The notes under the pieces are model-generated. The model was given only the letters and a program-made list of their open reading frames with translations. It was not told the DNA's origin and did no database searches. This document shows positions 1 to 4,573 of a DNA stretch of 4,573 nucleotides, piece by piece (positions within the stretch are counted from its first letter, which is position 1; every line of letters starts with the position of its first letter). The position numbers and the translations under genes were made by a program. Source of the DNA: a virus (taxonomy: Duplodnaviria > Heunggongvirae > Uroviricota > Caudoviricetes); IMG/VR virus record IMGVR_UViG_2700989367_000011; one strand, written 5' to 3'.

Positions 1-413
1 GCCTGTCATGGGCTGTTAATCATTACCGTGATAACGCCATTACCTACAAAGAGCAGCGCGACAAAAACGCAAGAGAACTGAAGCTGGCGAACGCAACCAT
101 TACTGACATGCAGCAGAGACAGCGTGATGTTAATGCACTCGATGCTAAATACACGAAGGAGTTAGCTGATGCGAAAGCTGAAAATGAAACTCTGCGCGCT
201 GATGTTGCCGCTGGTCGTCGTCGGTTGCACATCAAAGCAGTCTGTCAGTCAGTGCGTGAAGCCACCACCGCCTCCGGCGTGGATAATGCAACCAGCCCCC
301 GACTGGCAGACACCGCTGAACGGGATTATTTCACCCTCAGAGAGCGGCTGATGACGATGCAGATGCAACTGGAAGGGGCACAGGAGTATATCCGCACTCA
401 GTGCATTAAGTAG
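1..413 (+). CDS. Rz: Rz i-spanin (inner-membrane spanin subunit), 5'-partial; codon phase starts at nt 3, stop TAG 411-413
   Basis: The frame is open from the window edge. Its translation ([136 protein letters not shown]) is near-collinear with phage lambda Rz as I recall it. The ATG at 108 is internal, not the start. Confidence 0.92.
169..351 (+). CDS. Rz1: Rz1 o-spanin (outer-membrane lipoprotein), embedded in the +1 frame of Rz
   Basis: 60-aa [63 protein letters not shown] with a signal peptide, a lipobox (VVGC, Cys at about residue 20) and a proline-rich mature part. AGGAG at 157-161 sits 7 nt upstream of ATG 169. The gene lies wholly inside Rz, the classic lambda Rz/Rz1 arrangement. Confidence 0.88.
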
Positions 414-455: not shown

Positions 456-727
456 ATGCCATCACTAATCCCACGTGCCTGCCGTAAGCGTGGATGTGCA
501 GGTACAACCACAGACAGTTCGGGTTACTGCGATAAACATCGCGGTGAAGGCTGGGTGCAGCACCAGCGCGGACTGAGCCGCCACCAGCGTGGCTATGGCT
601 CAAAATGGACGGTGATTCGTGCCCGTATTCTGAAGCGCGATAAAGGTCTGTGTCAGTTGTGTCTGCGTGTCGGTGTGGTGAGCGAGGCGAAAACCGTCGA
701 CCACATCATCCCGAAAGCGCATGGCGG
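456..727 (+). CDS. HNH endonuclease (phage packaging-associated type), 3' end lost in the N gap
   Basis: ATG 456 is preceded by GAGG (447-450) at 5-nt spacing. The translation has zinc-finger-like Cys pairs (CRKRGC, GLCQLC) and the start of an HNH motif (VDHIIPKAHGG) just before the N run. Its position directly upstream of the terminase genes matches HK97-like phages. Confidence 0.85.
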
Positions 728-950
728 NNNNNNNNNNNNNNNNNNNNNNNNNNNNNNNNNNNNNNNNNNNNNNNNNNNNNNNNNNNNNNNNNNNNNNNNN
801 NNNNNNNNNNNNNNNNNNNNNNNNNNNNNNNNNNNNNNNNNNNNNNNNNNNNNNNNNNNNNNNNNNNNNNNNNNNNNNNNNNNNNNNNNNNNNNNNNNNN
901 NNNNNNNNNNNNNNNNNNNNNNNNNNNNNNNNNNNNNNNNNNNNNNNNNN
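728..950. other. Assembly gap (223 consecutive N)
   Basis: An uninterrupted run of n characters. It masks the 3' end of the HNH gene, the HNH-terS intergenic region and the 5' end of the small terminase gene. Confidence 0.99.
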
Positions 951-951
951 T

Positions 952-1344
952 GTTTTTACGCCCATCAAAGGTGTTGAGCCACCAGAGTGGTTCGCTGAAG
1001 AAGATCTCCCTCTCGCCACGATCATGTGGCAACTGACAACCAAAGAACTCTGCGGTCAGGGCCTGCTGTGCGTGACTGACCTGGCGGTACTTGAGCGGTG
1101 GTGCGTGGCCTATGAGTTCTGGCGACGTGCCGTGAAAAATATTGCCATACAGGGCAACACCATCACCGGTGCAATGGGCGGCAGGGTCAAAAATCCGGAG
1201 CTGACCGCCAAAAAAGAACAGGAGTCCGAGATGAGCAGCACGGGGGCAATGCTCGGACTCGACCCCAGCAGCCGCCAGCGTCTGATTGGCCTGGCGGGGC
1301 AGAAGAAAGCCACTAACCCGTTTCTGAAAATTATCGAATCATGA
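952..1344 (+). CDS. Terminase small subunit (P27 family), 5' end lost in the N gap
   Basis: The reading frame is open from the gap to TGA 1342-1344. The translation ([130 protein letters not shown]) fits the P27-family pattern as I recall it (PEW..E, GLL..D...L..YC.AY..W, LGL.P.SR.RL). The stop overlaps the terL start in ATGA. Confidence 0.85.
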
Positions 1345-3074
1345 GCCGGAAATCTTACCCCAACGTAAATGCTGCAAATCAGTATGCCCGGGATGTCGTG
1401 CGCGGAAAGATTGTTGCCTGCCAGTTTGTGATTCAGGCCTGCCAGCGCCATCTTGATGACCTGATGGCGGAAAAAAGTAAGTCGTTTCGTTACCGCTTCG
1501 ACAAGGACCTGGCTGAACGGGCCGCGAAATTTATTCAGCTGTTGCCGCACACCAAGGGGGAGTGGGCATTCAAACGGATGCCCATCACGCTGGAGCCGTG
1601 GCAGCTATTTGTGATCTGCTGTGCGTTTGGCTGGGTCAATAAAGGCACCCGGTTGCGCCGCTTCCGGGAGGTGTACACCGAAATCCCCCGTAAGAACGGC
1701 AAATCAGCAATCTCTGCCGGTGTTGCCCTGTATTGTTTTGCCTGTGATAACGAGTTTGGCGCGGAAGTGTATTCCGGTGCCACGACAGAGAAACAGGCGT
1801 GGGAAGTCTTTCGCCCGGCGCGACTGATGTGTAAACGCACACCCATGCTGACGGAAGCGTTCGGGATTGAGGTTAACGCCTCAAACATGAACCGTCCGGA
1901 GGATGGCGCGCGGTTTGAACCGCTGATCGGCAACCCAGGTGATGGTTCATCACCCCACTGTGCCGTGGTTGATGAATATCACGAGCATGCCACCGATGCG
2001 CTTTATACCACAATGCTTACCGGGATGGGGGCGCGACGTCAGCCACTGATGTGGGCCATCACCACCGCCGGGTACAACATTGAGGGGCCGTGCTACGACA
2101 AGCGGCGGGAAGTCATCGAGATGCTCAACGGCTCGGTGCCTAACGATGAACTGTTCGGGATCATCTATACCGTTGATGAAGGTGACGACTGGACCGGCCC
2201 GCAGGTGCTGGAAAAAGCCAATCCAAATATTGGCGTGTCGGTTTATCGCGAATTTTTGTTAAGTCAGCAGCAGCGTGCGAAAAATAACGCCCGTCTGGCA
2301 AACGTCTTTAAAACAAAACACCTCAATATCTGGGTGTCGGCGCGTTCGGCGTATTTCAACTTGGTGAGCTGGCAGAGCTGCGAGGATAAATCACTGACCC
2401 TTGAGCAGTTCGAGGGGCAGCCGTGCATTCTGGCCTTTGACCTGGCGCGTAAGCTGGATATGAACAGCATGGCGCGACTTTATACCCGCGAGATTGACGG
2501 TAAAACGCATTACTACAGTGTGGCCCCGCGTTTCTGGGTACCGTATGACACGGTGTACAGCGTCGAGAAAAATGAAGATCGACGGACAGCCGAACGCTTT
2601 CAGAAATGGGTGGAAATGGGCGTTCTGACCGTTACCGATGGTGCGGAGGTGGATTATCGCTACATCCTCGAGGAGGCCAAAGCGGCGAACAAAATCAGCC
2701 CGGTCAGTGAGTCACCCATCGACCCCTTCGGGGCGACCGGGTTGTCACATGACCTTGCTGATGAAGACCTGAATCCCGTCACTATCGTCCAGAACTTCAC
2801 CAATATGTCCGATCCGATGAAAGAGCTGGAAGCAGCGATTGAATCGGGACGTTTTCATCATGACGGCAATCCCATCATGACCTGGTGTATCGGCAACGTG
2901 GTCGGCAAAAACATGCCGGGTAACGATGATGTGGTGAAACCCGTCAAAGAGCAGGCGGAAAACAAAATCGATGGTGCAGTTGCGCTGATTATGGCGGTTG
3001 GCAGAGCCATGCTGTACGAGAAAGAAGACACGCTGTCTGACCACATTGAGTCCTACGGGATCCGCTCGCTTTAA
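1341..3074 (+). CDS. terL: Terminase large subunit (HK97 / Terminase_1 type), ATPase plus nuclease
   Basis: 577-aa ORF with a Walker A-like motif IPRKNGKS and a Walker B-like motif [11 protein letters not shown] in the N-terminal ATPase half, and acidic residues in the C-terminal half ([22 protein letters not shown]) consistent with the nuclease domain. Its size and position between terS and portal fit. The ATG at 1341 overlaps the terS stop. Confidence 0.95.
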
Positions 3075-3085
3075 CTGAGGTAATT

Positions 3086-3268
3086 ATGATCATGCTGATT
3101 CTCGCGCCTCTGGTGGGCGTGCTGGGTGCGCTTTTGCTGGCGTATGGTGCCTGGCTGATTTATCCCCCGGCGGGTTTTGTTGTTGCCGGGGCGCTGTGCC
3201 TGTTCTGGTCGTGGCTGGTGGCGCGATATCTCGACCGTACACGGCAGTCTGTCGGCGGAGGTAAATAG
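3086..3268 (+). CDS. Small hypothetical membrane protein (60 aa, two predicted transmembrane helices)
   Basis: GAGG (3077-3080) lies 5 nt upstream of ATG 3086. The translation [60 protein letters not shown] has two hydrophobic stretches separated by a YPPAG turn and a basic C-terminal tail. Its TAG stop (3266-3268) overlaps the portal GTG start. I do not recognise the family. Confidence 0.5.
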
Positions 3269-4424
3269 TGTTCTTTTCGGGATTATTTCAACGAAAAAGC
3301 GATGTGCCGGTGACCACGCCAGCAGAACTGCTGATGCTATCGGGCTGTCATACGACACCTATACCGGAAAGCGGATCAGTAGCCAGCGGGCCATGCGCCT
3401 GACGGCGGTCTATTCTTGCGTCAGGGTGCTGGCAGAGTCTGTTGGTATGCTGCCCTGCAGTCTCTACAAAATCAGCGGTACCCTGAAAACACGGGCGGTG
3501 GATGAACGACTGCATAAGTTGGTTTCGGCAAAACCTAATGGCTACATGACACCGCAGGAATTCTGGGAGCTGGTTATTGTCTGCCTGTGTCTACGGGGGA
3601 ATTTTTACGCCTACAAGGTAAAGGCACTGGGAGAAGTGGTGGAGCTTCTTCCGATAGATCCGGGCTGTGTGGAACCGAAGCTGAACAGCCAGTGGCAGCC
3701 GGTTTATCAGGTGACGTTTCCGGATGGTTCCGTGGATGTGTTGACCCAGAATGAAATCTGGCATGTGCGCACCCTGACGCTGGATGGACTTGTCGGGCTG
3801 AATCCCATTGCGTATGCGCGTGAGGCCATTTCACTGGCAGCGGCAACCGAGGAGCACGGTGCCAGGTTGTTTAGTAATGGTGCGGTGACATCCGGTGTGT
3901 TGCGTACGGAACAAAAGCTCACGCCGGATGCTTACGAGCGTCTGAAGAAAGATTTTGAGGAGTGTCACACGGGGCTTGGCAATGCTCACCGCCCGATGAT
4001 TCTGGAAATGGGGCTGGACTGGAAGTCGATGGCGCTGAACGCCGAGGACAGTCAGTTCCTGGAAACCCGCAAGTTTCAGCTGGAAGAAATCTGTCGTCTG
4101 TTCCGGGTGCCGTTGCACATGGTGCAGAACACCGATCGCGCCACCTTCAACAATATCGAAGAGCTGGGGCTGGGATTTATCAACTATTCACTGGTGCCGT
4201 ATCTGACCCGCATCGAACAGCGGATCAACACCGGACTGGTACGAAAAAGTAAGCAGGGCGTTTATTACGCCAAATTTAACGCCGGGGCGTTACTGCGCGG
4301 GGATATGAAGTCCCGTTTTGAAGCCTACGCCACCGGGATCAACTGGGGAATTTACTCTTCCAATGACTGCCGCGACCTGGAAGATATGAATCCGCGTCCC
4401 GGTGGTGTAATGCCGATCAGTTAA
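3268..4424 (+). CDS. Phage portal protein (HK97 family), apparently disrupted: N-terminus in a different frame from the body, and the 3' end runs into the IS4 terminal repeat
   Basis: GGAGG (3257-3261) lies 6 nt upstream of GTG 3268, and that frame gives a portal-like N-terminus MFFSGLFQRKSDVPVTTPAELLMLSG before stopping at 3400-3402. The portal body (…ISSQRAMRLTAVYSCVRVLAESVGMLPCSLY… to …GINWGIYSSNDCRDLEDMNPRPGG) is in the frame shifted by one and has no ATG/GTG/TTG start before ATG 3393. The final codons VMPIS and the stop (4407-4424) are read from the IS4 end. The ORF-track start at TTG 3177 is not supported. Confidence 0.8.
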
Positions 4425-4425
4425 G
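4408..4425 (+). repeat. Putative IS4 terminal inverted repeat (left)
   Basis: TAATGCCGATCAGTTAAG is immediately followed by a second GATCAGTT copy (the octamer repeats at 4415-4422 and 4426-4433). The other inverted-repeat copy and the target duplication are outside the window, so this cannot be confirmed here. Confidence 0.5.
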
Positions 4426-4457
4426 GATCAGTTGACCGATCCAGTGGCTGTGTAAGA

Positions 4458-4491
4458 ATCCGGAAACGCTCACTTGTTTCCGGATTTTTTT
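4458..4491 (+). terminator. Intrinsic-terminator-like hairpin (10-bp perfect stem, 8-nt loop, T7 run) inside the IS4 end, ending directly at the transposase ATG
   Basis: ATCCGGAAAC (4458-4467) pairs perfectly with GTTTCCGGAT (4476-4485), with loop GCTCACTT, followed by a run of T through 4491. The only Shine-Dalgarno-like element for ATG 4492 (GGA 4482-4484) lies in the 3' arm of the stem. Confidence 0.5.
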
Positions 4492-4573
4492 ATGCACATT
4501 GGACAGGCTCTTGATCTGGTATCCCGTTACGATTCTCTGCGTAACCCACTGACTTCTCTGGGGGATTACCTCG
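4492..4573 (+). CDS. insG: IS4 transposase, N-terminal 27 codons (3'-partial; runs off the window)
   Basis: The translation MHIGQALDLVSRYDSLRNPLTSLGDYL matches the N-terminus of the E. coli IS4 transposase InsG as I remember it. The frame is open to the window end. Confidence 0.8.
   Translation, partial: MHIGQALDLVSRYDSLRNPLTSLGDYL

Follow-up and report, generated by a model that had tools for sequence, protein, structure and literature searches.

The 4,573-nucleotide stretch of DNA analysed here, referred to below as the window, most probably represents the late-gene end of a decayed Shigella sonnei lambdoid prophage. On this reading, to which we assign a probability of roughly 0.87, the window carries an HK97-type packaging module in the order HNH endonuclease, cos, TerS, TerL, membrane protein and portal, and the run of N within it conceals about 301 nt that include a cos site of the SfI/SfV/phiP27 type. 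The gene order, the homologies of the encoded proteins, the sequence of sister genomes and the identity of a 10-mer in that sequence with an experimentally mapped cos site were observed directly. The cos site, the HNH-terminase arrangement and the packaging mechanism are already known from SfI, SfV, phiP27 and HK97, and only the discrepancy in gap length and the defective state of the prophage are additions to prior knowledge. The biological weight of the result is small, the missing bases being available from identical genomes.

Packaging genes in the window

The window was found to contain the following features.

1..413, + strand: Rz (i-spanin) gene, the last lysis gene ahead of the packaging module, with its 5' end cut by the window start
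169-351: Rz1-like lipoprotein ORF, embedded in the Rz gene
456..727, + strand: visible part of the HNH endonuclease gene (272 nt, codons 1-90, ATG at 456)
728..950: run of 223 N
951..1344, + strand: 3' part (last 394 nt) of terS, P27 family
1341..3074, + strand: terL, intact, 577 aa, HK97 type
3086..3268, + strand: gene for a YmfR-like hydrophobic 60-aa protein between terL and portal, from the ORF list
3268..4407, + strand: portal pseudogene
4408..4573, + strand: terminal part of an IS4 element that interrupts the portal gene; the window stops inside IS4

The HNH start and the terS stop are the exact limits of the interval 456-1344. The HNH, terS, terL and portal genes were all located on the + strand, the terS stop at 1344 overlapped the terL ATG at 1341, and a regular-expression check revealed that the 223-N run was the sole N run in the window. 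The Rz gene matched the Pfam family Phage_lysis (PF03245) with 177 bits, and in the sister loci the holin, lysozyme and Rz genes were situated 5' of the HNH gene. The 60-aa ORF at 3086-3268 gave no Pfam match; its counterparts were named 'protein YmfR' in RefSeq (E. coli prophage) and 'putative integral membrane protein' in phiP27 (L37).

The visible HNH ORF (456-725, 90 codons) matched Pfam HNH (PF01844) with 23.2 bits against a cut-off of 21.4, and the match covered only profile positions 1-25 of 47, being broken off by the N gap. Three elements could be read in this part, namely a Cys-rich segment at the N terminus (CRKRGC...YCDKH), CQLC as the first CxxC pair, and DHIIP with the catalytic Asp-His. 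When completed with the filler from the sister genomes, as described in the next section, the protein comprised 116 aa and matched profile positions 1-47 of 47 with 60.6 bits. Its core was complete in the sister genomes, with DH (82-83), N97, CH (105-106) and the pairs CQLC and CWPC, and the C-terminal codons hidden by the gap read GTDADSNLQSLCWPCHKAKTARERIR followed by the stop. The best solved relative was the HNH protein of phage GVE2 (PDB 5H0M), which aligned end to end, Cys-rich N terminus and DH...N...CH core included, although its host and phage are distant and its similarity to the HNH protein of the window is modest (E 1e-12). The protein was also homologous to HK97 gp74 (34% over 70 aa, E 2e-10). 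An HNH gene occupied the same position in six of the six relatives compared, namely phiP27, SfV (orf53), 606R7 and three E. coli prophages.

Window positions 952-1341 matched Pfam Terminase_4 (PF05119) with 73.4 bits, and the full TerS from the sister genomes (164 aa) matched the same family with 72.6 bits (cut-off 24.7 in both cases). A 100%-identical E. coli copy of TerS is named 'phage terminase small subunit P27 family' in RefSeq. TerL gave Pfam TerL_ATPase and TerL_nuclease matches. A phmmer search of TerL against the PDB revealed 6Z6D, the HK97 TerL, as the only match (E 5.4e-26), and BLASTP comparison with HK97 gp2 showed 26% identity over 522 aa (E 8e-31).

The original prediction had placed the HNH gene directly upstream of terS and terL in an HK97-like arrangement, and both statements were borne out, the former by the gene order and the Pfam matches on one strand and the latter by the homology of TerL to HK97 TerL and the relationship of the HNH protein to gp74. 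The HNH-terS-terL order was the same in all sister and related loci compared, and it was also the order of HK97, in which HNH (gp74), cos, terS (gp1) and terL (gp2) follow one another. The prediction had further stated that the HNH protein is reported to assist cos cleavage, which agrees with PMC9410871, PMC11331095 and PMC12967558, where Kala 2014 is cited for HK97. In a reconstituted system, HK97 gp74 boosts cos cleavage (PMC9410871; PMC11331095), HK97 being the only phage for which such stimulation is known.

Sequence behind the N run

The gap was closed by looking up contigs that encode the exact 577-aa TerL in a public assembly collection. The exact protein was indexed in 4305 blocks, mostly contigs of 2-10 kb, with contigs longer than 1 Mb in 87 blocks. 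We examined ten public contigs with the exact TerL, including CP000038.1, which we take to be the chromosome of S. sonnei Ss046; this accession is mentioned together with 'Ss046' in 25 papers, and the five of these that were listed all concern Shigella. Four of the ten had 0 mismatches to both flanks of the window (left, 727 nt; right, 3623 nt), and these perfect matches included the portal/IS4 junction. Where the window has 223 N, all ten sister contigs (10/10) carried one identical filler of 301 nt. As the flanks of the window are those of the sisters, the window is therefore an S. sonnei contig, and its missing sequence is known with high confidence; judging from the sisters, this strain should carry the same 301-nt filler. 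Assembly gaps can thus be closed by an exact-protein look-up in sister assemblies.

The N run was 78 nt shorter than the filler of the sister genomes (223 versus 301). Because sisters with identical flanks have 301 nt at this place, the N length is likely a mere estimate; it probably records the gap size estimated by the scaffolder and not a faithful length. N-run lengths are not to be trusted for spacing arguments. In the sister sequence, the hidden stretch held a 100-nt segment of 72% G+C together with boxes rich in G/C homopolymers, and this high G+C content with its G/C runs may plausibly have caused a short-read drop-out. When one genome per species was searched for both gap flanks at a distance of 208-238 nt, there were 0 matches. 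Complete E. coli genomes were also considered as a source for the gap and were rejected, the best of them reaching about 94% identity over the whole window. In the best-matching E. coli complete genomes, an iss moron was located between Rz and HNH.

The filler was found to contain the elements listed below, with offsets counted within the 301-nt sister sequence; the window itself shows no base of cos.

1-79: HNH codons 91-116 and the stop
between the HNH stop and the terS ATG: HNH-terS spacer, 121 nt
100-116: conserved box GAGGGGCGGGGCAAATC, about 20 nt past the HNH stop
102-109 and 143-150: inverted-repeat arms GGGGCGGG and CCCGCCCC, respectively
141-150: cos 10-mer TGCCCGCCCC, starting 41 nt beyond the box start
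downstream of the cos 10-mer and before the terS start: T7, ACCCGCG and A5 tracts
201: terS ATG; the filler holds the first 33 terS codons

Both ORFs were intact across the filler (HNH, 116 aa; TerS, 164 aa). The 10-mer TGCCCGCCCC was present as a single copy, counting both strands, in the 7.7-kb locus and was found in ten of the ten sister contigs. Its last eight bases, CCCGCCCC, formed a perfect inverted repeat with GGGGCGGG, which lies 33 nt upstream. The first 40 nt after the 10-mer (+1 to +40) read ATCGTTTTTTTATACCCGCGAAAAATG. With it, the HNH-terS spacer of the sister genomes contains the cohesive-end sequence of the form (T/C)GCCCGCCCC, the window's own bases being N.

It had been predicted that the 3' end of the HNH gene, with the remaining catalytic residues, the intergenic region and the start of terS all lie in the gap, and the sisters with identical flanks confirmed this, down to the Asn and the final His of the core. 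Filling the gap computationally from the sister genomes yielded the cos 10-mer together with HNH and terS genes that were intact and not fused. The accompanying view that the cis element is unsequenced stands for this record but not elsewhere, as thousands of sister assemblies carry cos.

The cos site and its relatives

Megablast searches of phage records revealed that the terS-terL-portal stretch was 94-98% identical to the S. flexneri phages SfIV, SfII, SfI and SfV. The same stretch was 83% identical in Salmonella phage ST64B, and both gap flanks matched the Stx2e phage phiP27 (AJ298298) at 84% (megablast). The records of SfV, SfIV, SfI, SfII and ST64B begin 150-230 nt upstream of the base matching window position 951, and these starts fall inside the hidden stretch. 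For SfI, a 10-nt gap, 5'-TGCCCGCCCC-3', was detected when the virion ends were compared to the prophage, a result that indicated a cos mechanism, as postulated for SfV, and the fixed cohesive virion ends were shown by end sequencing (PMC3636060). Mapped onto the sister sequence, the SfI record begins immediately past TGCCCGCCCC, in agreement with the report that the record closes with the cos site (PMC3636060). An identical cos site is common to SfI, SfII, SfIV and SfV, and the terminases of the pac phages Sf6 and SfX are dissimilar (PMC3851460). In phiP27, the annotated cos-site CGCCCGCCCC is situated between L34 (HNH) and L35 (terS), at the aligned position and one base off TGCCCGCCCC. In SfV, the HNH homologue orf53 is the last gene ahead of the right genome end. 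The phiP27 annotation, the starts of the SfI-type records and the 10-mer in the sister spacer all agree with the predicted location of cos between HNH and terS. By its sequence, the cos site in the gap is assigned to the SfI/SfV/phiP27 type, a kind already characterised.

The cos regions of S. sonnei, two E. coli prophages, phiP27 and phage 606R7 were aligned together with the joined ends of SfV. The alignment revealed an invariant G-rich box, GGGAGGGGCGGG-CAAATC, soon after the HNH stop, and a (G/T)AC(C/T)GCC core at a fixed spacing from this box, while the sequence downstream of the core followed the terS type. In cos sites of the SfI/SfV/phiP27 type, the box takes the form GAGGGGCGGG(T/G)CAAATC. 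A scan of IMG/VR for the box identified at least 120 contigs with the T form and 41 with the G form, at least 161 in all, and 126 box occurrences had flank enough for analysis. The box started 20-31 nt past the stop of an ORF with the HNH motif (DH..N.Q..C..CH) in 104 of these 126, a count made with a simple regular expression that may have missed the HNH ORF in the remaining 22 of 126. The (G/T)AC(C/T)GCC core began exactly 38 nt after the box start in 107/126. We also found the exact S. sonnei spacer in 11 IMG/VR contigs. The notion that the G in the box GGGGCGGG(G/T)CAAATC is a decay mutation was rejected, as 41 IMG/VR contigs carry G. Many of the contigs with the G-form box were 30-50 kb in length, and the 11 with the exact S. 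sonnei spacer belong to these 41.

In the comparison with SfI, SfV, SfII and SfIV, the part of the spacer that reaches from the cos core up to the terS ATG was identical to the SfV left end, and the experimentally mapped 10-nt cos of SfI was the same as TGCCCGCCCC of the sister genomes. In contrast, the SfV box has T where the S. sonnei box has G, and the HNH gene of the window was of the phiP27 type, with 64-86% identity per 50-nt bin to an SfV-like E. coli copy. The gene order was the same in phiP27, after which the TerS family is named, and the segment from the HNH gene through the box was 88-100% identical to phiP27 per 50-nt bin. Past the cos core, however, the S. sonnei sequence turned to the SfV type, its identity to phiP27 dropping to 40-72%. 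Identity to the SfV-like E. coli copy was 100% from about nt 400 onward, counted from the HNH ATG. On this pattern of identities, the S. sonnei element is read as a phiP27/SfV mosaic whose two parts meet between the box and the cos core. E. coli UTAK-3 was found to be a similar hybrid with its joint at the right edge of the 10-mer; from the two joint positions, recombination joints thus cluster at cos.

When the right and left ends of HK97 were joined and aligned with these sequences, the G-run, the TCAAATC box and the GACCGCC core were found to be shared. In particular, GACCGCCGCCAAA/GTTTG of HK97 aligned column for column with GACTGCCCGCCCC/ATCG, and the HK97 genome end therefore corresponds to the right edge of the SfI 10-mer. 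Some structural differences were present, as the HNH stop lies 319 nt from the genome end in HK97 compared with about 70 nt here, and the HK97 record has the 10-nt overhang CGCCGCCAAA in place of TGCCCGCCCC. The length of the HK97 overhang has been given as 10 nt, 3' (PMC11331095), and as 12 nt, 3' (PMC9410871).

HK97 and the S. sonnei sequence both have an ACCCG motif and an A/T-tract at 15-25 nt past the cut. HK97 reads ACCCGATTTTTTT at about +18 to +30, and the S. sonnei/SfV counterpart, +14 to +25 past the 10-mer, is ACCCGCGAAAAA. In HK97, TerS binds a site that spans +15 to +29 beyond the cut and is recognised via one G and the adjacent A-tract (PMC11331095). This correspondence suggests that the TerS site of the S. 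sonnei/SfV type may lie at the same place as that of HK97. The HK97 model of the TerS site serves here as an analogy only because TerS differs from HK97 gp1 in having no detectable sequence similarity to it, gp1 had no Pfam match at E 0.01 or below (and thus no Terminase_4), and TerS had no match in the PDB.

By analogy with HK97, TerS of an intact phage would bind immediately to the right of the nick site, in the A/T-tract region, and TerL, stimulated by the HNH protein, would then make nicks staggered by 10 nt within the core that contains CCCGCCCC. The DNA would be packaged rightward, starting with terS, and packaging would terminate at the next cos. The 3' polarity of the 10-nt overhang is likewise expected from the homology with HK97. 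The same analogy points to the ACCCG/A-tract as the putative place of TerS binding and would also apply to how HNH and TerL share the work, with each nuclease cutting its own strand or strands.

Alternative readings and the state of the prophage

The observations above were also weighed against other readings of the locus. That the strain itself differs inside the gap is quite improbable. It would mean either that the N run is faithful in length and that about 78 nt, probably including cos, have been deleted, or that an insertion or rearrangement has taken place. The 223 N of the window, compared with 301 nt in ten sister contigs, fit such a deletion, and with 223 nt and an intact HNH end and terS start the spacer would be only about 43 nt and cos would be lost; moreover, S. 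sonnei genomes are IS-rich, and several IS surround the remnant. However, the flanks were 100% identical to the sisters over 4350 nt, all ten sisters agreed on the filler, and the species-representative genomes scanned contained no pair of flanks 208-238 nt apart. An IS insertion would have kept the 301 nt of unique sequence, and the flanks would have assembled up to the insertion point. The 72% G+C segment and the G/C homopolymer boxes would be typical causes of short-read drop-out, and S. sonnei draft assemblies typically give this region as contigs of 4-5 kb.

The HNH gene could alternatively be a free-standing, selfish homing endonuclease gene that happens to lie beside the terminase genes and has no packaging role, and several phage records do annotate the homologue as 'homing endonuclease'. 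Phage HNH proteins of this class, when alone, cut non-specifically (PMC12967558), and the mosaic joints adjoin the HNH gene, a setting that recalls the nuclease genes at exchange boundaries described in PMC10055350. Nevertheless, we consider this reading very improbable. Rather than occurring sporadically, the gene held one position throughout the six relatives compared, it preceded the cos box at a fixed 20-31 nt in 104/126 IMG/VR loci, and its product is kin to HK97 gp74 and full-length kin to the GVE2 HNH protein, gp74 being known to stimulate cos cleavage (PMC9410871; PMC11331095). Headful (pac) packaging with no cos in the gap, which the original prediction had named as the outcome that would overturn it, is barely conceivable for this lineage. 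No specific point speaks in its favour, whereas SfI has fixed virion ends, with a 10-nt gap relative to the prophage (PMC3636060), SfIV and SfII share the site, and the terminases of Sf6 and SfX, both pac phages, are unrelated (PMC3851460). The TerL of the window is of the HK97 cos type, and the exact 10-mer is present in the sister genomes. We therefore retain the reading of an HK97-type module with a SfI/SfV/phiP27-type cos behind the N run, located in a decayed S. sonnei prophage.

The decay was evident from the portal gene. Alignment to the intact 1242-nt portal of an E. coli prophage revealed a 1-nt deletion in the window at about 3329/3330, which shifted the frame after codon ~21, and the match to Pfam Phage_portal (358.8 bits) was on the shifted frame. 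The portal homology stopped at window position 4407, corresponding to reference position 1141/1242, so that the last ~100 nt were missing. In many E. coli genomes, a sequence labelled 'IS4-like element IS4 family transposase' matched window positions 4380-4573 at 97%, and in the sister loci an IS4 transposase gene comes after portal. We inspected neighbourhood views of 21.7 kb each from six S. sonnei chromosomes, in which the portal fragment was followed by IS4, often by another IS, and then by chromosomal genes; these were bamE-recN-nadK-grpE in some strains and raiA-pheA-tyrA-aroF in others. On its upstream side, the prophage was cut by an IS adjoining a DnaB-like gene. The 21.7-kb views of the six chromosomes contained no protease, capsid or tail genes. 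Since the portal gene is broken and the head and tail genes are gone, the cos site cannot serve its own phage. The packaging module is a relic in a dead prophage, which cannot make heads or virions.

The S. sonnei element thus differs from the SfI/SfV phages in being a remnant without head or tail genes. With regard to the features of an HK97-type module, the HNH-terS-terL order and a gp2-type TerL were present in the window, and the complete HNH core was present in the sister sequence, the window showing its first half only. The downstream genes deviated from the module, as the portal gene was broken and the protease and capsid genes were absent from the S. sonnei loci. Intact relatives do carry an 'HK97 family phage prohead protease' and a capsid gene. 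The lineage is a member of the group with an HK97-type, presumably HNH-assisted cos module, and this copy is a remnant. A tidy packaging module may therefore sit in a prophage without working portal, head and tail genes.

It is extremely unlikely that the HNH-cos-TerS-TerL block of the remnant is anything but inert, either because a SfI/SfV-type superinfecting phage packages from the chromosomal cos and mobilises adjacent host DNA or because the resident terminase or HNH protein interferes with such phages. The sole point behind this reading is that the ORFs are intact, and clonality explains their conservation without selection. S. sonnei is clonal, and identical TerL sequences across the returned S. 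sonnei contigs are therefore expected and are not evidence of selection. The intact HNH-cos-TerS-TerL block was kept in every S. sonnei contig examined.

Mosaic joint and spacing around the cos region

Comparison with phiP27 and an SfV-like E. coli copy revealed a mosaic joint near cos, which we located within positions 2038-3004 of L012, a sister contig that encodes the same TerL, matches the flanks with 0 mismatches and closes the gap in window 456-1344. To the left of this joint, the HNH gene and the G-rich box that shortly follows its stop were phiP27-like. The switch falls past this box and ahead of the cos core, the conserved stretch downstream of it, and from that point on the DNA was 100% SfV-like. 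The run of N at window 728-950 comprised 223 positions, in contrast to 301 nt in all ten sister contigs (10/10) with identical flanks; arguments on spacing or reading frame that take the N count as their basis would be wrong.

We also observed a similar hybrid in E. coli UTAK-3 (L005), where the joint lay about 35 nt further right and terS was annotated as frameshifted. Additionally, one viral contig (L049, IMGVR_UViG_2711768073_000020) contained two copies of the box, at 3490-3506 and 6361-6377, on the same strand and with 2.9 kb between them.

Portal gene and IS4 insertion

The portal gene at window 3268-4407 is a pseudogene: one nucleotide is deleted near 3329/3330, which shifts the frame after about 21 codons, and the gene lacks its final ~100 nt. 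In sister genomes, the portal product was 343 or 414 aa long, depending on the gene call. The gene is interrupted by the following element:

4408-4573, terminal part of an IS4 element whose insertion site lies within the portal gene; the window stops inside IS4

In sister draft assemblies, this region is represented by contigs of 4.4-5.1 kb. The DNA beyond IS4 varied among S. sonnei chromosomes (L017-L022, about 13100-16000), as some contained an IS and bamE-recN-nadK-grpE and others raiA-pheA-tyrA-aroF. These differences suggest IS-mediated rearrangements in S. sonnei, with the prophage remnant at a breakpoint.

Rz region and Rz-HNH interval

An ORF at window 169-351 (+) was found out of frame within Rz (1-413). 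Its product contained a lipobox and a proline-rich stretch, and the embedded ORF looks like an Rz1 o-spanin gene nested in Rz. In the best-matching E. coli prophages, a lipoprotein gene, iss (increased serum survival), was located between Rz and HNH on the opposite strand (L003:1442-1735); this gene was absent from the window, where the Rz-HNH distance was 42 nt.
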